A DNA stretch of 26,909 nucleotides, from NCBI GenBank assembly GCA_030643545.1, contig DAOWLE010000025.1, positions 1 to 26,909 of the forward strand, written 5' to 3'. The translations under genes were made by a program, and so were the position numbers. Positions 3,664-26,860 of this stretch are shown here, in pieces; the stretch's first letter is position 1, and each line of letters begins with the position of its first letter. This stretch comes from a bacterium (GTDB taxonomy: Bacteria; Patescibacteriota; Minisyncoccia; JAHIHE01; DAOWLE01). The notes under the pieces are model-generated. The model did not search any database. It was given only the letters and a program-made list of their open reading frames with translations, and was not told the DNA's origin.

Positions 3664-4479
3664 TTACTGGGCAATGAAAAATATTTCATCAGCTTTTATA
3701 ACGCCACTTTTTTCAAAAACACCTTTTACAGTAAACGGCCAAGGCGGACCATTCCAATTTTTAAGCAAAGAATAAAATTCAGAAAAAGTATAATAATTAT
3801 CTACTATAAATTTTCCTTCATCATATACGCCCCTATAAAATTTTGTAGAATCAGCAGTTAACACTTTTACATTTTTAGACTCTGATTGAGTTTGTCCTTC
3901 AAAACTTTTATTAACTAAATCAAAACTTTCAGCATCAATAAAAATGCTTATATTTTCAGATTTACTTTTTTCTTTAATGCTAAAATAATTATCACTTTCA
4001 TCGGATTCTCCTGGCTTACCCTTTCTTACAAATACTTGAATTTTATAGTTATCTCCCATCTGTATCAAGTTATCTTCTGTATCAGTAAGATCCCAATTAT
4101 ACATACCTGTATTTGGAACTGAAAAAGCAATGTAATTAGCGAGATTCCATTTTCCTTCTTTAATAAGGTAAATATCAACTTTTTTTTCTATATTAAGAGA
4201 AGATTTCCATTTAATCTCATAATTATTCCCAATTATCCACTTTTCTCCTCCGTTGGGAGAAATTACTTTAATATAAGGTTCTGTTTCATCAACAATTTCT
4301 GATTCTTCTGACTCTTTTTCAATCAACGGTTTAGTAATTTCATTTCTATTTTTTCCCAATTCAGAACCGCCACCAAAATATTTCCAGCTTGCAAAGCCAA
4401 CCGTGCTGATGGCAACAACGCCGACAATGATAGCGATGATAAGATAGAGATTTCCTTTTTGAAAATTTTGATTGCTCAT
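3664..4479 (-). CDS. hypothetical membrane-anchored/secreted protein
   Basis: 271-aa ORF with an N-terminal TM/signal anchor (LYLIIAIIVGVVAISTVGFA). It is followed by an acidic linker and a predicted beta-rich ectodomain. No recognised catalytic motif. Confidence 0.55.
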   Translation of the reverse strand: MSNQNFQKGNLYLIIAIIVGVVAISTVGFASWKYFGGGSELGKNRNEITKPLIEKESEESEIVDETEPYIKVISPNGGEKWIIGNNYEIKWKSSLNIEKKVDIYLIKEGKWNLANYIAFSVPNTGMYNWDLTDTEDNLIQMGDNYKIQVFVRKGKPGESDESDNYFSIKEKSKSENISIFIDAESFDLVNKSFEGQTQSESKNVKVLTADSTKFYRGVYDEGKFIVDNYYTFSEFYSLLKNWNGPPWPFTVKGVFEKSGVIKADEIFFIAQ

Positions 4480-4557
4480 AATTTCTTACTTTCTTTATTC
4501 TAAAACTCAAAAGTTTTAGAAAGATAAAAATGATTAATTATTTATAAATATTTAAAA

Positions 4558-4953
4558 CTAAATCGTTTTCAATAATTCATCCATCTTTTTCACAAAAATT
4601 TCTGCTTTTTCAACAGCGTCTTGCGCGTCTTTTTTATTTATTTTAACTTCTTCTCTGTAATCAGCGTCTGTTCTTGCTTCTTGAACTACTGAAAGCATTT
4701 TTGAATAATTTTTATCAACTATTCCAGTTTTTACAAAATATTTCCTCCATAACAAGCCAATTCCTTGATGAGTTTTTGGCTCTTCTTTTTTAAAAATCAA
4801 AACCGCTTTTGCCGCATAAAACATAGCGTAATAAGCCCTTGAAACAGCGTCGCGATATTTTCCGGCTTTAAATAAAATTTGGGCAGATTCTAATTTATCT
4901 TTTGCCAATTTAATTCTCAATTTAGCAAATTCTTTTTTCTTTTTTGGTTCCAT
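4558..4953 (-). CDS. hepT: HEPN domain protein (putative toxin of HEPN/MNT pair)
   Basis: 131-aa all-helical ORF. Its start overlaps the end of the upstream nucleotidyltransferase gene by 37 nt. Family assignment rests on size, the YYAMFYAAKA helix and this genetic coupling. Confidence 0.6.
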   Translation of the reverse strand: MEPKKKKEFAKLRIKLAKDKLESAQILFKAGKYRDAVSRAYYAMFYAAKAVLIFKKEEPKTHQGIGLLWRKYFVKTGIVDKNYSKMLSVVQEARTDADYREEVKINKKDAQDAVEKAEIFVKKMDELLKTI

Positions 4954-5270
4954 AATTCTATTGCGTCTTTTTTAACATTTTCTAAAAAAGGAGTCCATTT
5001 ATTAAATTCTTTCTTTGGCAAAATCCGTGGAGAAATTTCCACCTCGTATTCAAGCATCGGATCAGTAGCCATTTCAATCATTTTTTTCCATTTTTCTCGG
5101 TTCGCTTTCTTGTTTGTAATTAATAAAATATCAAGGTCTGAATATTTATGATAATTTCCTCTTGCTTTAGAGCCAAAAAGCATCATCCTTTCTATAAGAG
5201 TCGGATAATTTTTTCTCAAATTATTTTTATAATCAGTTAAGGCTTTTTTTTCTTTGATATTAAGAGACAT
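4917..5270 (-). CDS. mntA: minimal nucleotidyltransferase (MNT, putative antitoxin)
   Basis: 117 aa with the GSKARGNYHKYSDLDILLI motif (GS...DxD, the pol-beta-like nucleotidyltransferase signature). Located upstream of and overlapping the HEPN gene. Confidence 0.75.
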   Translation of the reverse strand: MSLNIKEKKALTDYKNNLRKNYPTLIERMMLFGSKARGNYHKYSDLDILLITNKKANREKWKKMIEMATDPMLEYEVEISPRILPKKEFNKWTPFLENVKKDAIELWNQKRKKNLLN

Positions 5271-5290: not shown

Positions 5291-6013
5291 TTATTGCTTA
5301 ATTTTATTTTTTGCTTCAATAATCGTATCCGAAACAACATCCGTCATTAATTTTAAAGCGCTGATTGCGTCATCGTTGGACGGAATTGGATAATCCGCTT
5401 TTGTCGGATCAGCGTCCGTGTCAGATAAAGCGATTATTGAAACGCCGGTTTTTTTCGCTTCGGAAACAGCTAATTTATCTTTGTTGATATCAATCACAAA
5501 AATTGCTTCAGGAATTTTTTTAAGAAATAAAATTCCTTCTAATTTGCCCCTCAATTTTTTATATTTCTTATCAAAATCCAATCGTTCTTTCTTGGTGTAT
5601 TTTTTAAACTCCTCAGATTTTCTTTTTTCTTCCATTTCTTCCAGAAATTTTATCTGTTTTAATATTACTTTAAAATTAGTAAAAGTGCCGCCAAGCCAGC
5701 GTTCAACAACATACGGCATTCCGCATTTTTCCGCCGCTTGTTTAACAATATCTTTGGCTTGTTTTTTTGTGCTGACAAATAAAATAATTCCGTTTTCTTT
5801 AATTATTTTTTTAACAAATTCCAAGGCCTCTTTTAATTTCTCTTGAGTTTGTTCAAGATCAATGATGTGAATGCTATTATGGGTAGTATAAATATAAGGA
5901 GCCATTTTTGGATTCCATCTTGATTTTTGATGGCCAAAATGAACGCCTGCTTTCAACATATCAGACATTGATATTTCTTTAGTTTTATTTTCAATTTTCT
6001 TTTCTTCTGACAT
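5291..6013 (-). CDS. rpsB: 30S ribosomal protein S2
   Basis: 240 aa with MLKAGVHFGHQKSRWNPKMAPYIY, the conserved S2 N-terminus, and a Lys-rich C-terminal tail. Sits upstream of tsf on the same strand, as in the canonical rpsB-tsf operon. Confidence 0.9.
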   Translation of the reverse strand: MSEEKKIENKTKEISMSDMLKAGVHFGHQKSRWNPKMAPYIYTTHNSIHIIDLEQTQEKLKEALEFVKKIIKENGIILFVSTKKQAKDIVKQAAEKCGMPYVVERWLGGTFTNFKVILKQIKFLEEMEEKRKSEEFKKYTKKERLDFDKKYKKLRGKLEGILFLKKIPEAIFVIDINKDKLAVSEAKKTGVSIIALSDTDADPTKADYPIPSNDDAISALKLMTDVVSDTIIEAKNKIKQ

Positions 6014-7041: not shown

Positions 7042-7071
7042 GATTTACGATTTAAGATTTACGATTTAAGA
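7042..7071. repeat. gatttaYgatttaaga tandem repeat immediately upstream of the corA start
   Basis: gatttacgatttaagatttacgatttaaga lies 6 nt upstream of the corA ATG. Related copies occur at 11401-11439, 11823-11845 and 22273-22290. Confidence 0.7.
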
Positions 7072-10396: not shown

Positions 10397-10517
10397 TTTA
10401 TTCACCTCCAATCGCGTAATTTATTCCCGATTTTGTCGGGACTATAAATTACAGCGTCCCGCCCTTTTGGCTTAAACCAAAAGAGCGGGGCAACATTTTT
10501 TAATTTAGAAAATAAAA

Positions 10518-11393
10518 TTATCCCGCGAGAATATCAACCAATGTATTCACAATCGCGTACGCCAGGACAACAACTAAAAGTCCTAAAATAGCGTAAGTCA
10601 ACGCTTTTTTTGCTGTATCAGCTTTCTGCTGATCCCCGGCGGAAATCATATACATTGCCCCGCTTATAATAATCATTAAAATCGCGATTAAAATTACAAT
10701 TTTTAAAAGCCACTTAATTAAATCCTCAAGAATTTCAGAAAGCGGTTTGCTCGAAAGATTTACTGTTGAACCGCTGCTTGTTGATGCCGGTTCTTGAACA
10801 GTTATTCCGCCATTGCCTGTTGGAAGTTGTGAGGTTGTAGGAGTTGTGGGAATTGTGGGAGTTGTGGGAATTGCATTTGCGTTTGTTGGAAGCTGTGGAA
10901 CAGTTGAAGCTATTTGACAAGTTCCTTCGTAGCAACAAACACCACTAGTACAATGCCTTGGACCGCTTGGTACAACACTAACACCCCCCGTACATTCACT
11001 TATATCAATGCATTCTTGACCACCTACAGATTCGCAATCAGTTAGAGGAGGAGTTGAAGACGTTTTACATTTTCCATTAATGCAACCGTTCGGACAATCA
11101 TCCACTTTAAAAAGAGATTGATTACAATCACAAGTCATCCCCCCCCATCCTTTTTTACAACCAAATCTAACTGATTTTTGATTATTTTCAACGCAAAAAG
11201 CATAATCGTAATTGTTTTCGTCGTCGCAATCATCACGGCTACCAGCGCACCAATCATTAGCTGTCATTCCATCATAAGTAATATTATTATCACTACAACG
11301 ATAATCTTTAGCAGAAACTTTCTCTCCCACTCCCAAAATTCCCAAACAACTCACCATTAAAATTAAAGTAAATAATAAAATTTTTTTGTTCAT
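10518..11393 (-). CDS. secreted Cys-rich protein with Pro/Thr linker and TrbC/VirB2-like C-terminal double-TM domain (P2)
   Basis: 291 aa with a Sec signal peptide (cleavage near VSA-KD). The ~140-aa domain has about 20 Cys (KDYRCSDNNITYDG...GCKKGWGGMTCDC...). A PT-rich linker (IPTTPTIPTTPTT) follows. The C-terminus carries GAMYMISAGDQQKADTAKKALTYAILGLLVVVLAYAIV. The N-terminal domain is paralogous to 11848..13083. Confidence 0.65.
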   Translation of the reverse strand: MNKKILLFTLILMVSCLGILGVGEKVSAKDYRCSDNNITYDGMTANDWCAGSRDDCDDENNYDYAFCVENNQKSVRFGCKKGWGGMTCDCNQSLFKVDDCPNGCINGKCKTSSTPPLTDCESVGGQECIDISECTGGVSVVPSGPRHCTSGVCCYEGTCQIASTVPQLPTNANAIPTTPTIPTTPTTSQLPTGNGGITVQEPASTSSGSTVNLSSKPLSEILEDLIKWLLKIVILIAILMIIISGAMYMISAGDQQKADTAKKALTYAILGLLVVVLAYAIVNTLVDILAG

Positions 11394-11400
11394 AAAACAA

Positions 11401-11439
11401 TGATTTATGATTTAAGATTTATGATTTACGAATGATTTA
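11401..11439. repeat. gatttaYgattta repeat between the P2 start and the 3' end of the four-helix-bundle gene
   Basis: tgatttatgatttaagatttatgatttacgaatgattta lies 7 nt upstream of the P2 ATG and overlaps the last codons (FVNHKS*) of the four-helix-bundle gene. An inverted copy lies at 11823-11845 on the other side of that gene. Confidence 0.7.
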
Positions 11440-11798
11440 GTTTTTTGAATTAATCCTTGTAAAAGTTGATGAGCTGAATTTATTTGATCTACTAATTTAT
11501 TAAAATTTTCTTCGTTAAGATAATTGACATCTTTAGCGATCAAAATTTGGTTTTTTAATTCAATCAAAGAACCTTGCGCAATATAATAAAACTGGACTTT
11601 TTCTTTATAAGTTTGTCTTCCAAATCCTTCAGCAATATTCGATGTGATAGAGACAACTGCTCTTCGCATTTGACTGACTAATCCGAATATTTCTTCTTTC
11701 GGAAATTCCTTTGTGATTTTATAAACTAAAATTACTATTTGATGTCCTTCTTGCCATGTTTTTAAATCTGTAAATGATTTTATTTTTTGATTATTCAT
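11412..11798 (-). CDS. four-helix-bundle protein (23S rRNA intervening-sequence protein family)
   Basis: 128 aa with DLKTWQEGHQIVILVYKITKEFPKEE...SQMRRAVVSITSNIAEGFGR..YKEKVQFYYIAQGSLIEL. These are the characteristic helices and the WQ..h/NIAEG motifs of the TIGR02436 / 23S_rRNA_IVP family. Confidence 0.75.
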   Translation of the reverse strand: MNNQKIKSFTDLKTWQEGHQIVILVYKITKEFPKEEIFGLVSQMRRAVVSITSNIAEGFGRQTYKEKVQFYYIAQGSLIELKNQILIAKDVNYLNEENFNKLVDQINSAHQLLQGLIQKTKSFVNHKS

Positions 11799-11822
11799 AA
11801 ATCGTCAATTCCTTAATCCTAT

Positions 11823-11845
11823 TCTTAAATCATAAATCGTAAATC
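11823..11845. repeat. inverted copy of the gatttaYgattta repeat, upstream of the four-helix-bundle gene
   Basis: tcttaaatcataaatcgtaaatc is the reverse complement of the repeat family found at 7042, 11401 and 22273. Together with 11401-11439 it brackets the four-helix-bundle gene as an inverted pair. Confidence 0.65.
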
Positions 11846-11847
11846 TT

Positions 11848-13083
11848 CTATTGAACTCCCAAAATATCTTTTAACTCCGTAATAATTGACCAAGATAAAA
11901 TAACAACTCCCAGTCCCACAACAGCGTAAAGAATTATATTTTTCGCTTTTTTAATTCTTTCCTCGTCGCCGGCAGAAGTAATATACATTAATCCGCCGAT
12001 AATTAAAAATAAAATTGCCAAAGAAACCACAATTCCCAAAATCCAATTGATAATTCCCATAATCAGCGCCTCAAAACTATCAGTGCTTAAAGGATTATTA
12101 AACCTAACCGCTCCGCCACTACCACCAGTATTGCTTCCACCCATACCACCTCCATTATTAACCGTTCCTCCGCCGCCCTCGTTACAATCAGAACCAGAAA
12201 CACAACGAATTTTTCCTTTGGATTTTCCATTACATGTTCCTTCGCAACTACTTGGTCCGCATATTTCAGCTTCTTGATTATCACATTCATCATCAGGATT
12301 ACAACCAATATTTATCCAATAACAAGGATTTGGAGTAGTTGTTGAAATAGGATTACATTGCCCTATACAACAAACTCTACTACCAGAACATCCTGATACG
12401 TCTAATTTTTCTTGCGAACATGTATTTTTATTTAAATCACAACAACTTCCTCCTGCGTCAGAACAAGTTTGAGTTTTTGGAACACAACTTTCTGGCTGAC
12501 AACAAGTACCGCTGGAACATTCTCTCGGACCTTCAAATACAACTTTTGAACAATTATTTGTTCTCAAATCACAACATATTTGACCACTTACAGATTCGCA
12601 CTTACAATATTTTTCCTTACAACAAAAACCGCTGGAACATTCTCTCGGACCACTTGCTACAAAACCGCTACAGTCTTTCTCATCACAACATACTTGACCG
12701 CTTACAGATTCGCAAGCAGTCGCCGGAGGAGTTGAAGACATTTTGCATTTTCCATTCACGCAACCGTTCGGACAATCATCCACTTTAATAAAACTACAAT
12801 CACAAGTCATCCCCCCCCATCCTTTTTTACAACCAAATTGAACTGATTTTTGATTATTTTCAACGCAAAAAGCATAATCGTAATTGTTTTCGTCGTCGCA
12901 ATCATCGCCCCAAATGCCTCCTGCGCACAAATCGTTAGCTGTCCTCCCATTATAAGTAATATTATTATTATCACAACGATAATCTTTAGCAAAAATTTCT
13001 CCCCCCACTCCCAAAATTCCGAAACAGCTCGCCATTAAAATTAAAGTAAATAAAAAGTTTTTGTTTTGAAATAAATTTTTCAT
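11848..13083 (-). CDS. secreted Cys-rich protein with duplicated Cys modules, Gly-rich segment and TrbC/VirB2-like C-terminal double-TM domain (P3)
   Basis: 411 aa. A signal peptide is followed by an N-terminal domain near-identical to P2. Nucleotide blocks around 12780-13020 and 11100-11340 are almost identical. Internal repeated modules are CESVSGQ(V/I)CCD...GPRECSSG(F/T)CC. The run GGGGTVNNGGGMGGSNTGGSGG is Gly-rich. The C-terminus carries GGLMYITSAGDEERIKKAKNIILYAVVGLGVVILSWSII. Confidence 0.65.
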   Translation of the reverse strand: MKNLFQNKNFLFTLILMASCFGILGVGGEIFAKDYRCDNNNITYNGRTANDLCAGGIWGDDCDDENNYDYAFCVENNQKSVQFGCKKGWGGMTCDCSFIKVDDCPNGCVNGKCKMSSTPPATACESVSGQVCCDEKDCSGFVASGPRECSSGFCCKEKYCKCESVSGQICCDLRTNNCSKVVFEGPRECSSGTCCQPESCVPKTQTCSDAGGSCCDLNKNTCSQEKLDVSGCSGSRVCCIGQCNPISTTTPNPCYWINIGCNPDDECDNQEAEICGPSSCEGTCNGKSKGKIRCVSGSDCNEGGGGTVNNGGGMGGSNTGGSGGAVRFNNPLSTDSFEALIMGIINWILGIVVSLAILFLIIGGLMYITSAGDEERIKKAKNIILYAVVGLGVVILSWSIITELKDILGVQ

Positions 13084-13123
13084 ATTGATATTTTATCTCT
13101 TTATTTGATTATAACTCATTTAT

Positions 13124-14026
13124 TTAAAAAATCAAACTAAAATAAATATCTTTTATAATTTCTCCCCAGAGCATCATTATAATCGTTGCCGCGACTAAGA
13201 AGGGTCCAAAAGGAATCTGGCTTTTGATAGATTTTATTTTTAAACCGATGAGAATTAAACCGATTGCCGCGCCCAAAATAAAAGCAAGGAATAGAGCAAA
13301 AAGAATATTTGGCCAACCGAGAATAAGTCCCATTAAAAAAGCCAATTTAACATCGCCAAATCCCATCCATTGACCTTTTGATATTAAAATTATTAGAAAG
13401 AAAAATCCAGCGGCGATGATAGCAGAGAAAATAGTATTTAGTATATCGTATATTGTATATTGTATAAAAATACCAGATACTAAATACCAGATACTAAATA
13501 CCAAAATAGCTGGAAAAATTATTTTGTCTGGAATAATGTAATGTTTTAAATCGTATACAAAAATTACTATTAGAGAACAAAGAATGAAAAGCAAAGAACA
13601 AAAAGCAATGAACAATGAACAGAAATTTAAAAGATTGTCATTCCCAACTTGATTGGGAATCCAGGCAGATAAGAAATGATTTGAATACTGGATTCCCGCC
13701 TGCGCGGGAATGACAGAAGAAGCGGGAATGACAGAAGAAAAAAAACCTAAAAAATTAAAAAATAAAACAAACAATATTCCTGTTCCTATTTCCACTAATG
13801 GATACTGAATTGAAATTGGTTTTCCGCAGTATCGGCATTTGCCAAAAGTGGAAATAAAACTTAAAATCGGAATCAAATCAAACCATTTCAAATTTTTTTT
13901 ACAATGCGGACAGCGCGAGCGAGAGAAAAAAAATTCTTCTTTTGTTTTCAAACGGCAGATAACAACATTTAAAAAACTGCCGACAATAAGCCCGAAGATA
14001 AAAATAAAGAAAGAAATAACAAACAT
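13124..14026 (-). CDS. pilD: prepilin peptidase (A24 family) carrying an in-frame repeat-derived insertion
   Basis: 300 aa. The N-terminal Zn-binding tetracysteine motif is CPHCKK...CRYCGK. The LNVVICRL and YPLVE motifs are present. The catalytic region VYDLKHYIIPD is followed by the downstream multi-TM A24 domain (GFGDVKL). About 45 extra residues (SSVIPASSVIPAQAGIQ...) lie between TM2 and the first catalytic Asp. These are encoded by the palindromic repeat at 13635-13740. Confidence 0.8.
   Translation of the reverse strand: MFVISFFIFIFGLIVGSFLNVVICRLKTKEEFFFSRSRCPHCKKNLKWFDLIPILSFISTFGKCRYCGKPISIQYPLVEIGTGILFVLFFNFLGFFSSVIPASSVIPAQAGIQYSNHFLSAWIPNQVGNDNLLNFCSLFIAFCSLLFILCSLIVIFVYDLKHYIIPDKIIFPAILVFSIWYLVSGIFIQYTIYDILNTIFSAIIAAGFFFLIILISKGQWMGFGDVKLAFLMGLILGWPNILFALFLAFILGAAIGLILIGLKIKSIKSQIPFGPFLVAATIIMMLWGEIIKDIYFSLIF
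13635..13740. repeat. palindromic GGAATGACAGAAGAA-type element inserted in-frame inside pilD
   Basis: ttgtcattcccaacttgattgggaatccagg...ctggattcccgcctgcgcgggaatgacagaagaagcgggaatgacagaagaa. Palindromic arms are attccca/tgggaat and ttcccgc/gcgggaa, with a duplicated gggaatgacagaagaa unit. The architecture matches the intergenic copy at 9826-9880. On the coding strand it translates as FFFSSVIPASSVIPAQAGIQ. Confidence 0.7.
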
Positions 14027-15079: not shown

Positions 15080-15107
15080 TTATTTCACCTCCCCTCGTTG
15101 AAAAATT

Positions 15108-15204
15108 AAAATCCAAAACAAAAAACAAAAAAATAAATTAAAAGTTAAAAGTTTTTGGTTTTTTGAATTTATTTTTGGCTTTTTTGTTTTTTGTTTTGGA
15201 TTTT
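15108..15204. repeat. perfect 26-bp A/T-rich inverted repeat with 46-nt spacer between the pilC stop and the pilin start
   Basis: aaaatccaaaacaaaaaacaaaaaaa at 15108-15133 is the exact reverse complement of tttttttgttttttgttttggatttt at 15180-15204. The repeat abuts the pilC stop codon at 15205. Confidence 0.8.
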
Positions 15205-17489: not shown

Positions 17490-17495
17490 ATAATA

Positions 17496-17612
17496 AATTT
17501 AAATATTAAATATCAAAATGTAAAATGACAATGTAAAATTAAAAATTAAAAATTAAAAATTTTTCAATTTTGATTTGTTATTTTGATTTTTGATTTTTGC
17601 ATTTTAATTTTT
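17496..17612. repeat. imperfect palindromic intergenic element, copy B
   Basis: aaatatcaaaatgtaaaatgacaatgtaaaatt...aattttgatttgttattttgatttttgattttt. Fills the whole spacer between the pilT start and the stop of the upstream small ORF. Confidence 0.7.
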
Positions 17613-17936: not shown

Positions 17937-17939
17937 AAT

Positions 17940-18140
17940 ACAAATTTAAAATTTAAATATCAAAATGTAAAATGACAGTGTAAAATTCAAAATTGACTAA
18001 TGTTAAAATGGTTTTTAAGTTTACCCTGTTAAATAAAATCTTTGATTTTCTTTCACCAAAGGCGAAAGACTTAACAGGGTAAATTCCATTTTAACATTTT
18101 GATTTGTCATTTTGCATTTTGATATTTGCATTTTGATTTT
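17940..18140. repeat. imperfect palindromic intergenic element, copy C, with nested hairpin insertion
   Basis: Same outer cores as copies A, B and D, plus the ttgactaatgttaaaatggttttt block shared exactly with copy A. It contains the nested perfect palindromes tgttaaaatgg/ccattttaaca (18001-18011 with 18086-18096) and tttaccctgttaa/ttaacagggtaaa (18020-18032 with 18071-18083). Confidence 0.7.
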
Positions 18141-18141
18141 T

Positions 18142-21078: not shown

Positions 21079-21081
21079 GAT

Positions 21082-21186
21082 AGTAAATTTAAAAATTAAA
21101 TATCAAAATGTAAAATGACAATGTAAAATTTAAAATTTTTTAATTTTGATTTGTCATTTTGATTTTTGATTTTTAATCTTTGATTT
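21082..21186. repeat. imperfect palindromic intergenic element, copy D
   Basis: aaatatcaaaatgtaaaatgacaatgtaaaattt...aattttgatttgtcattttgatttttgattttt. Fills the pilM-pilN spacer. Confidence 0.7.
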
Positions 21187-22272: not shown

Positions 22273-22290
22273 AAAATGATTTATGATTTA
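22273..22290. repeat. gatttaYgattta repeat immediately upstream of the pilM start
   Basis: aaatgatttatgatttac lies 4 nt upstream of the pilM ATG and overlaps the stop of the giant upstream gene. Confidence 0.6.
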
Positions 22291-26805: not shown

Positions 26806-26860
26806 TTATTGTTCTTTGTTCATTGTTTTCTGTTCTTTGTTCATTGCCTATTCTTCTCAT
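26806..26860. repeat. tandem direct repeats (cattgttttctgttctttgtt x2) in the upstream region of the giant gene
   Basis: ttattgttctttgttcattgttttctgttctttgttcattg. A related motif (aacaatgaacagaaa / caaagaacaaaaagcaatgaac) occurs at 13590-13626 inside the pilD insertion zone. Confidence 0.6.

Follow-up and report, generated by a model that had tools for sequence, protein, structure and literature searches.

The window analysed here, a stretch of 26,909 nt from a patescibacterial genome (contig DAOWLE010000025.1 of assembly GCA_030643545.1, positions 1 to 26,909), has a G+C content of 34% and includes a small four-helix-bundle (4HB) gene that is bracketed by inverted arrays of a 7-nt repeat. 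The gene content of the window, with a type IV pilus operon, three type IV secretion system (T4SS)-pilin-like genes, corA, rpsB, tsf and secY, is typical of Patescibacteria (the candidate phyla radiation, CPR). The genes around the 4HB gene all lie on the minus strand, in the transcription order P2, 4HB, P3, and include: (i) P2 (13083-11848; 411 amino acids), a Cys-rich T4SS-pilin-like paralog of family PF18895 that is the upstream host gene, (ii) the 4HB gene itself (11412-11798; 128 amino acids), and (iii) P3 (10518-11393; 291 amino acids), a Cys-rich PF18895 paralog of P2 that is the downstream host gene and lies outside the inserted unit, hereafter the cassette. The spacers are short, at 49 nt between P2 and the 4HB gene and 18 nt between the 4HB gene and P3. 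The best minus-strand promoter-like site is found upstream of P2 (13108-13135) and none is predicted at the P2-4HB or 4HB-P3 junction; likewise, no terminator-like site is predicted on the minus strand across 10400-13300, the region of P2, 4HB and P3.

The 4HB gene had been read from the sequence as a member of the 23S rRNA intervening sequence (IVS) family, and profile searches agree. The protein matches PF05635 (132.4 bits, cut-off 33.8) and TIGR02436 (122.6 bits, cut-off 24) above the curated thresholds, which places it in the '23S rRNA IVS protein' or S23p family, and it is similar to XCC0516 of known structure (PDB 2GSC; phmmer E-value 1.5e-18). An AlphaFold model of the monomer (pLDDT 90.9) has four helices and an XCC0516-like fold, superposing on 2GSC at a Foldseek TM score of 0.80-0.91 and a root-mean-square deviation of about 1 Å; the next matches are BT_0352 (2RLD) and then Avd, the accessory protein of diversity-generating retroelements (DGRs). 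Proteins of this family are expected to form homopentameric toroids, of which the model here represents the monomer only. Relatives are numerous (3865 with E-values below 1e-10), the closest are 70-88% identical, and many reside on short contigs. The cassette has no match to a defence system in PADLOC. An Rfam scan of the window finds two tRNAs only; thus, the cassette does not reside in helix 9, 25 or 45 of a 23S rRNA.

The repeats that bracket the 4HB gene, tGATTTAtGATTTAaGATTTAtGATTTAcgaatGATTTA at 11401-11439 and tcTTAAATCaTAAATCgTAAATC at 11823-11845, are as originally predicted in both position and sequence. Read on the minus strand, the 5' arm (11821-11845) is GATTTAC GATTTAT GATTTAA GA(AT), with a period of 7 and 2.9 copies, and begins 2 nt past the P2 stop codon (11848-11850). 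The leader that follows (11799-11820, minus strand) separates the 5' arm from the 4HB start codon and includes AAGGA (11810-11814) at 11 nt before the ATG. The 3' arm (11401-11439, minus strand) is TAAATCA, a 4-nt spacer (TTCG) and then TAAATCA TAAATCT TAAATCA TAAATCA, with a period of 7 and 4.1 copies; this array is reverse-complementary to the 5' arm, and its outer end lies 7 nt before the P3 ATG (11393). The coding strand after P2 is, therefore, AA-GATTTAC-GATTTAT-GATTTAA-GAATAGGATTAAGGAATTGACGATTT-ATG, and the 4HB gene ends as ...AAA TCA TTC GTA AAT CAT AAA TCT TAA-ATCATAAATCATTGTTTT-ATG (P3). The 5' arm thus consists of three GATTTAN units and the 3' arm of four TAAATCN units plus a fifth beyond the 4-nt spacer, with the last six 4HB codons and the stop codon (VNHKS*) encoded within the 3' array.

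The complementarity of the arms sets the 4HB gene apart from the other genes of the window. An inverted-repeat search pairs 11409-11433 with 11821-11845 (25 nt, 92% complementary), including a perfect 16-nt inverted pair (11402-11417 and 11823-11838). The motif TAAATCNTAAATC, with at most one mismatch allowed, occurs 9 times in the window versus 0.70 expected (13-fold), a count reached in 0 of 100 shuffles. The flank-to-flank complementarity score is 20 for the 4HB gene and 6-12 for the other 24 genes (0 of 2000 shuffles reach 20), making it the only one of 25 window genes with complementary flanks. Both the minimum free energy and the centroid fold of the 476-nt region include the arm-arm stem, which is predicted to run on into the leader and over the 4HB start codon.

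That the 4HB gene was inserted between tandem paralogs, as first proposed from its position, is now supported by relatives of the locus. Two such relatives, L084 and L085, were found by a protein search with P3 followed by contig look-up, while a metagenome scan for close P3 relatives returned only distant pilin-domain matches. L084, a 193-kb contig from JGI, is syntenic with the window (pilB-pilT-pilC-pilins-pilD-P2-P3-pilin...corA-rpsB-tsf), and its CorA is 95% identical to that of the window. The P2 stop codon of L084 is 12 nt from the P3 ATG (TAA-AATTAAAAAATT-ATG), with neither a 4HB gene nor an array at this site, and L084 is thus a case of the adjacent P2-P3 arrangement that had been suggested as a comparative check. 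In L085 (from ENA), the P2-P3 gap is 87 nt: a 5' arm (GATTTAC x3) is followed by the leader and by 4HB codons 1-8 (ATGAATAATCAAAAAATAAAATCATT), which run straight into ...ATCATTATTTTT-ATG of P3. This remnant is 88.5% identical to the window, a level similar to that of the flanking genes (74-83% identical at the nucleotide level). The P2-P3 site is, therefore, found in three states among relatives: filled (window), empty (L084) and internally deleted (L085). As the L084 site is empty and L085 holds an internally deleted remnant, the 4HB gene is an inserted, self-contained cassette that can decay. No target-site duplication is visible when the filled and empty P2-P3 sites are compared.

The inverted arms are a property of the gene family. 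Eighty fetched loci, nearly all from metagenome-assembled genomes of Patescibacteria and with relatives at 46-70% identity, provided 83 open reading frames (ORFs) for analysis. For self-similarity at period 7, these ORFs score 8.7 upstream and 11.3 downstream, whereas periods 4-6 and 8-11 give about 3. In 60 of the 83 ORFs both sides carry arrays, and in 44 of these 60 the upstream and downstream units are reverse complements of each other with no more than one mismatch, versus 9% in permuted pairs. The units are diverse (49 distinct, e.g., GATTTAN, GAATATG, GTAGCAT, GGACGTT, AGAGATA and GTATTTC), and a clear stem, on average 28 nt long and 86% identical, is present in 74 of the 83 ORFs. Period-7 arrays are found in 69% of the intergenic regions adjacent to 4HB genes compared to 25% of the others. 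The median gap to the neighbouring genes is 38 nt upstream and 39 nt downstream, about one arm length, and both neighbours are co-oriented with the 4HB ORF in 62 of 79 cases (63% expected; p = 0.002). The genomic contexts are mutually unrelated and include an ftsI-like penicillin-binding protein and murF, a position after rmuC and a position before another Cys-rich pilin; no rRNA context was found among the 80 loci. The cassette between the ftsI-like gene and murF (L012, 2974-3375), together with a Xanthomonas cassette between accB and accC described below, indicates that cassettes are tolerated inside essential operons. At another locus (L020, 2781-2981), five tandem 47-nt units, each with a GATTTTA-type heptamer pair, are found directly upstream of the 4HB cassette; here the 5' arm region has been amplified locally.

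The arms and the ORF are inherited together. The fraction of protein pairs that share the same unit falls with protein identity, from 71% at 70-79% identity to 43% at 60-69%, 9% at 50-59% and at most 2% below 50%; thus, the arms change in concert while remaining with the ORF. The C-terminal tails of the relatives, KSF[V/I/L]N[H/R/L/P]KS*, point in the same direction: the variable residues sit exactly at the free seventh base of TAAATCN (GTA/ATA/CTA and CAT/CGT/CTT/CCT), so that the conserved entity is the nucleotide repeat and not the peptide. The arms are, therefore, the cassette's own ends and not recombination sites that pre-existed at the target. Two readings in the original prediction do not survive this result. 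Recombination at pre-existing repeats is at odds with the inverted heptamer arms that relatives carry in other genomes and contexts, with units that co-diverge with the protein, and duplication of a host signal around the insert is likewise incompatible with repeats that belong to the cassette. Copying of the arms from the target site at each insertion was also considered and is rejected, as units are common to related proteins in different contexts and grow less alike as protein identity falls.

The arms also have a fixed polarity, in that the 5' arm is G-rich and C-poor (G exceeds C in 45 of 46) and the 3' arm has C in excess of G (57 of 60). A strand-specific signal was entertained as the cause; the G-first 'convergent' polarity is, however, identical on both strands and so has no tie to the strand of the ORF. 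Polarity only separates the 4HB cassettes from hairpins in the window that begin with the C-containing arm. These hairpins (1220-1361, 15080-15204, 17490-17612, 17937-18141 and 21079-21186) are long and intergenic, lie in or near the pilus operon and consist of CAAAATN units followed by NATTTTG units, opposite in polarity to the cassettes. Several share long identical stretches and thus form a repeat family, with fold z-scores of -5.7 for the hairpin at 21079-21186 and -3.5 for that at 15080-15204; the orthologous pilB spacer of L084 harbours a different hairpin, of the GATTTAC/TAAATCT type. A role of the heptamers as three-frame stop insulators holds for TAAATCN in the window and is rejected as a general rule, with stop codons in all frames in only 17 of 48 5' arms and 14 of 65 3' arms.

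The same build is found outside of Patescibacteria. A tblastn search of plasmids returned 35 records, mostly cyanobacterial, and inverted heptamer arms flank the 4HB genes of Calothrix (GGGTGTA/TACACCC), Trichormus and Nostoc punctiforme (CAGGAGT, CAGAATT/ACTCCTG, AATTCTG), Leptolyngbya and, among Bacteroidota, Riemerella (GGTTCAA/TTGAACC). A plasmid of Picosynechococcus PCC 7003 (L090) carries a 4HB cassette between cas10 and cmr3 (GGAGATA/TATCTCC). In lineages that use Shine-Dalgarno (SD) sequences, such as Nostoc and Picosynechococcus, the purine-rich 5' arm includes AGGAG-like motifs at SD distance from the ATG. As a separate observation, 11 of the 20 tandem-repeat rows in positions 1-50000 of the N. 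punctiforme plasmid pNPUN01 (L104) have a period of 7 or 14; among them are an unpaired CAGGAGT array (964-997), whose unit is that of the 4HB cassette nearby, and two inverted pairs that lack an ORF (44801-44883 and 46627-46818). The insertions in cas operons may explain why '23S rRNA IVP' is listed among CRISPR-linked domains (PMC10910872), in which case the 4HB gene may be a passenger of these operons rather than a functional partner.

Two further cases tie the build to published repeats and to rRNA. The XCC0516 orthologs of Xanthomonas arboricola, X. citri and X. sacchari are located between accB and accC, with an upstream arm of GGGAATC-GGGAGTG-GAGAATG-GGGAATC and a downstream arm of CCATTCC-CCATTCT-CGACTCC-CTATTCC that abuts the accC ATG. 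Rehm et al. (2015; PMC4692102) catalogued the GGGAATC repeats of Xanthomonas, including repeat #15 between bccP and XCC0516, which overlaps the XCC0516 start, and about 70 convergent inverted GGGAATC pairs per genome, one of which resides between groES and groEL; no link to the 4HB gene was drawn. The XCC0516 cassette has repeat #15 as its 5' arm. In Azospirillum lipoferum, the 4HB ORF of AZO_p2 (L098) lies inside a large subunit (LSU) rRNA gene (RF02541, 913 bits), and its arms are 36-nt heptamer arrays with 86% identity, TCAGAGGACGGATGACAGAGGACGGAGGACAGAAAG and its complement; this element is a true 23S rRNA IVS with heptamer arms. The inverted-heptamer build is thus found around 4HB relatives in five bacterial phyla.

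Heptamer arrays without an ORF accompany the cassettes. In the fetched loci, extra arrays of the cassette's own unit are about 10-fold more frequent than arrays of foreign units (0.625 versus 0.063 per test). Many of the own-unit arrays are short hairpins of cassette polarity that retain the ATG and the final bases ahead of the 3' arm (L003, 225-290; L041, 5548-5615; L056, 1046-1100 and 1632-1690; L075, 2667-2719), and such mini-hairpins are internally deleted cassettes like that of L085. The ORF-less hairpin of L084 (GATTTAC x4/TAAATCT x4.7; fold z-score -3.7) lies between pilB and the next gene.

Unpaired arrays of the same unit precede two other genes of the window. The corA leader array (7042-7071, minus strand) has four TAAATCN units that end 5 nt before the ATG; no complementary partner is found nearby, and the leader is predicted to be unstructured (z-score 0.28). 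The pilM array (22276-22290, minus strand) is TAAATCA x2 in the 21-nt spacer between a 1503-amino-acid gene and pilM; the first TAA is the stop codon of the 1503-amino-acid gene, and this array also has no complementary partner. The motif had been placed just before the start codons of corA, P2 and pilM, which is correct for corA and pilM, with the last unit 5-7 nt before the ATG, but not for P2: as the genes are on the minus strand, the array at 11401-11439 is upstream of P3 and overlaps the 4HB end, and P2 was confused with P3. The further suggestion of a start-codon-proximal signal is weakened where it implies an obligatory one. Where CorA is at least 90% identical, genomes differ in the corA array, which has four units (window), two (L102 and L103) or none (L084 and L101) and so is a variable-number repeat that is dispensable and not an essential signal. 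An origin of the corA array as the relic of a decayed cassette was considered, with a 7-nt resemblance (AAACATT) as its sole support; the 4/2/0 counts better fit slippage in place. In L101, which shares its sample with L085, a Fic-domain gene (3922-5001) is inserted directly upstream of corA and replaces the corA promoter region present in the window and L084.

Other repeats and insertions are scattered through the window. Arrays with periods of 7, 14 and 18 (13441-13621 and 13704-13739) reside in the linker of a prepilin peptidase ORF (13124-14026), where they encode repeated peptides (SSVIPA x2 and CSLFIAF-like x3); at the corresponding position (5413-5634), the L084 ortholog carries arrays built from different units. 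A (T/A)GAACAA heptamer/21-nt array (26807-26857) lies directly upstream of the ATG of the 1503-amino-acid LamG/DUF2341/PKD surface protein and is a further start-proximal heptamer array, with a unit that differs from TAAATCN. Between rpsB and tsf, a segment at 3664-5270 includes a nucleotidyltransferase-HEPN pair (4917-5270 and 4558-4953) and a 271-amino-acid gene, with one TAAATCA unit before the nucleotidyltransferase ATG. As rpsB directly adjoins tsf in L084, this segment appears to be a second lineage-specific insertion.

The cassette is compact and promoterless, consisting of the 4HB ORF and two reverse-complementary arrays of three to five heptamers between co-oriented host genes. The reading preferred here, which has about an even chance of being correct, is that of an IVS-type element carried on the host operon transcript, with arms that pair into a stem for RNase III. 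It builds on the anatomy of the locus, the insertion and decay at the P2-P3 site, the co-inheritance of ORF and covarying arms and a build like that of proven RNase III substrates. The cassette would be transcribed from the host promoter together with P2 and P3, and the GAUUUAN and NUAAAUC arms of this transcript would form a 16-25-bp stem, closing a loop of about 390 nt with the ORF and covering the 4HB start region. By analogy to the IVS of Coxiella burnetii, RNase III is proposed to cut the stem and free the 4HB mRNA. P3 would be left with a short, G-poor and unstructured leader, the outer half of the 3' arm, from which it may benefit. In SD-using lineages, the pyrimidine-rich 3' arm would mask the AGGAG-like motifs until the stem opens.

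Several observations weigh against this proposal. The non-Watson-Crick positions of 74 stems have no strand asymmetry (53 G:U versus 62 A:C in the sense orientation, p = 0.46), and the sense and antisense duplex energies do not differ; therefore, nothing shows that pairing is selected at the level of RNA rather than DNA. To our knowledge, nothing known of RNase III accounts for the tandem-heptamer build of the arms. The excised IVS RNA of Coxiella is labile, its ORF is decaying and its protein is probably not made; by contrast, the 4HB ORFs here are conserved and intact, and the mRNA cassettes may therefore act in another way than the Coxiella IVS. The build is also not universal. Of the Patescibacteria relatives, 23 of 83 lack a clear array on one side, and 3 of the 13 loci outside of this phylum do not fit: Pseudanabaena pPg_01 (L088) has direct arrays, (AAAAGCT)x12 and (AAAAGCC)x9, at a cas6-4HB-cas4 locus, the 4HB gene of the Nostoc 7120 gamma plasmid is beside insertion sequence (IS) elements with no complementary pair, and the 4HB gene of Gemmatirosa has a 3' array only and, again, no complementary pair.

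A mobile element that acts at the level of DNA is a possible if doubtful alternative, in which the heptamer arms are the working ends (as single-stranded DNA hairpins, cruciforms or recombination substrates) on which the 4HB protein or a host enzyme acts, and the ORF-less heptamer hairpins are non-autonomous derivatives, as MITEs (miniature inverted-repeat transposable elements) are of transposons. Such an element would account for presence, absence and decay at a single P2-P3 site, for the unrelated contexts (pilin paralogs, ftsI-murF, cas10-cmr3, cas6-cas4, accB-accC and 23S rRNA), for own-unit extra arrays at about 10 times the frequency of foreign-unit arrays, with many mini-hairpins that keep the ATG and ORF end, for the ORF-less GATTTAC/TAAATCT hairpin of L084 and for stems without an RNA-specific G:U bias. 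It is also in keeping with the about 70 convergent GGGAATC pairs of Xanthomonas (PMC4692102), of which the sole locus examined (accB-accC) has a 4HB gene with the same unit. On the other hand, no transposase or integrase is detected among the 20 Pfam-scanned ORFs of the window, nor is a reverse transcriptase, and the filled and empty sites differ by no target-site duplication. Different units occur within one genome (L041, L043 and L056), unlike the ends expected for a single transposase, and the bias of ORF orientation toward that of the host genes is needless for a purely DNA-level element. DNA-level mobility and a protein that recognises its own repeat are, however, each compatible with RNA processing.

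Alternatively, the arrays may be cis-regulatory, serving as RNA sites for a putative translational or stability factor, with the 4HB pentamer as the factor for its own unit, so that the 4HB gene would regulate itself and array-bearing genes such as corA, pilM and P3. This alternative is unlikely, even though a TAAATCN unit is found 5-7 nt before the ATGs of corA, P3 and pilM, the arrays typically have three to five units while XCC0516, BT_0352 and Avd are each deposited with five chains per entry, Avd is part of a DGR ribonucleoprotein (8UB7), the TAACTGA heptamers of Beggiatoaceae lie at start codons mostly without a ribosome-binding site (RBS; PMC4679880), and unit and protein co-diverge. 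The corA array, at 4, 2 or 0 units, is dispensable and resembles a product of slippage rather than a conserved operator, the co-divergence is equally expected from plain co-inheritance, and the complementarity of the two arms is left unexplained. Slippage alone, with the arrays as neutral microsatellites of an AT-rich genome that flank the 4HB gene by chance, is highly improbable. Many bacteria have an excess of heptamer simple sequence repeats (SSRs; cited in PMC4692102 and PMC4679880), the corA array has the character of a variable-number repeat, and a quarter (25%) of the other intergenic regions in the 80 loci carry period-7 arrays; yet chance does not predict arms that are complementary and covary across 49 units, the enrichment next to 4HB genes (69% versus 25%), an arrangement conserved from Patescibacteria to Xanthomonas and rRNA IVSs, or the fixed polarity, in which G-rich units form the 5' arm (45 of 46) and C-rich units the 3' arm (57 of 60). 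An IVS-type cassette with an RNase III stem remains the preferred reading.

Parts of this picture are already known, namely the protein family, rRNA IVSs with S23p ORFs, the heptamers of the Coxiella IVS and an excess of heptamer SSRs in several phyla. The open-access literature was found to hold no statement that inverted heptamer arrays flank PF05635 genes as a rule, whether within rRNA or elsewhere, no report of arms that covary and co-diverge with the 4HB protein and no report that the catalogued Xanthomonas heptamers include the XCC0516 arms; the single description of the Coxiella IVS is the only link between PF05635 and heptamers found there. Coding IVSs in 23S rRNA, the role of the common 4HB genes and the excess of 7-base repeats have been three separate puzzles, and the findings here suggest that all three reflect a single element, namely a 4HB ORF with inverted heptamer arrays on either side that is able to reside within rRNA or to separate the genes of core operons (accBC, the dcw cluster, cas operons and pilus genes). 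A broader and rather speculative proposal, which is probably incorrect, is that PF05635 genes and heptanucleotide arrays constitute one widespread two-part element in which the arms plus ORF are the autonomous form and the pentamer recognises its own repeat. If so, the ORF-less hairpins and unpaired arrays (Xanthomonas GGGAATC, cyanobacterial, corA/pilM and the stems of rRNA IVSs) would be derivatives or targets, and the pentamer, with about one heptamer per subunit, would spread, maintain or process the arrays. A practical warning is that 4HB genes labelled 'CRISPR-associated' or 'operon-associated' may be passengers and not functional partners. These questions are testable in tractable organisms, including Xanthomonas, where XCC0516 has a crystal structure and RNA-seq data are public.

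The cassette can be compared to several known systems. Avd, the DGR accessory protein, has a fold homologous to that of the 4HB protein (Foldseek matches 4DWL and 8UB7; phrog_3206, E-value 8.8e-9). Membership in a DGR is nevertheless rejected, as the 4HB protein scores 27.9 bits versus the 80-bit cut-off of the Avd equivalog NF033474; no reverse transcriptase domain is found in the 20 Pfam-scanned window ORFs and none by eye elsewhere, while template and variable repeats (TR/VR) were not searched for. Integron cassettes differ in having a single 3' attC, whereas the 4HB ORF has repeats on both sides, and no integron integrase is found in the window or L084. MITEs with their autonomous elements and hairpins of the repetitive extragenic palindromic (REP) type are closer: as in the 4HB system, full-length coding copies and short deleted hairpins have ends in common and occupy intergenic spacers inside operons. 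Unlike MITEs, the cassette has neither a transposase nor a target-site duplication, and its heptamer ends differ between copies in one genome.

Heptamer repeats of cyanobacteria have been known since 1990. The heptanucleotide SSRs described to date (Xanthomonas GGGAATC, cyanobacterial and Beggiatoaceae TAACTGA) are similar to the arrays of the window in that they consist of tandem 7-nt units in 2-6 copies that lie mostly between genes, frequently next to a start or stop codon and frequently as convergent inverted pairs; the TAACTGA heptamers directly precede start codons, most of which lack an RBS (MacGregor 2015; PMC4679880). The G-arm-first polarity of the 4HB cassettes matches the 'convergent' pairs of Rehm et al. 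The SSR papers view the arrays as G-quadruplex formers or regulator sites, unlinked to PF05635; here, by contrast, the arrays are the ends of a gene cassette. Descent of ORF-less arrays from cassettes is seen only for a few mini-hairpins.

The closest counterparts are the ORF-bearing 23S rRNA IVSs, which are known from Coxiella burnetii, Leptospira and Brucella and reside in helix 9, 25 or 45. In the Coxiella IVS, the termini form a 28-bp stem that is cut in its middle by RNase III in vitro, with ends mapped by rapid amplification of cDNA ends (RACE), and three tandem GACAGAT units and a degenerate fourth, strain-variable in copy number, lie directly upstream of the S23p ATG (Warrier et al.; PMC4990558). 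The window cassette differs in its location, between two protein-coding PF18895 genes and not in 23S rRNA, and in that excision by RNase III, demonstrated for rRNA IVSs, is here only predicted. In other respects the two are alike: an S23p/PF05635 ORF of about 120-130 codons resides in an element of about 430-450 nt that has no promoter of its own and rides on the host transcript, as predicted for the cassette here, the complementary termini form a long stem (about 28 bp) that encloses the ORF, and heptamers precede the ORF, whether GACAGAT in Coxiella, CAGAGGA/CGGAGGA in Azospirillum or GATTTAN in the cassette of the window.

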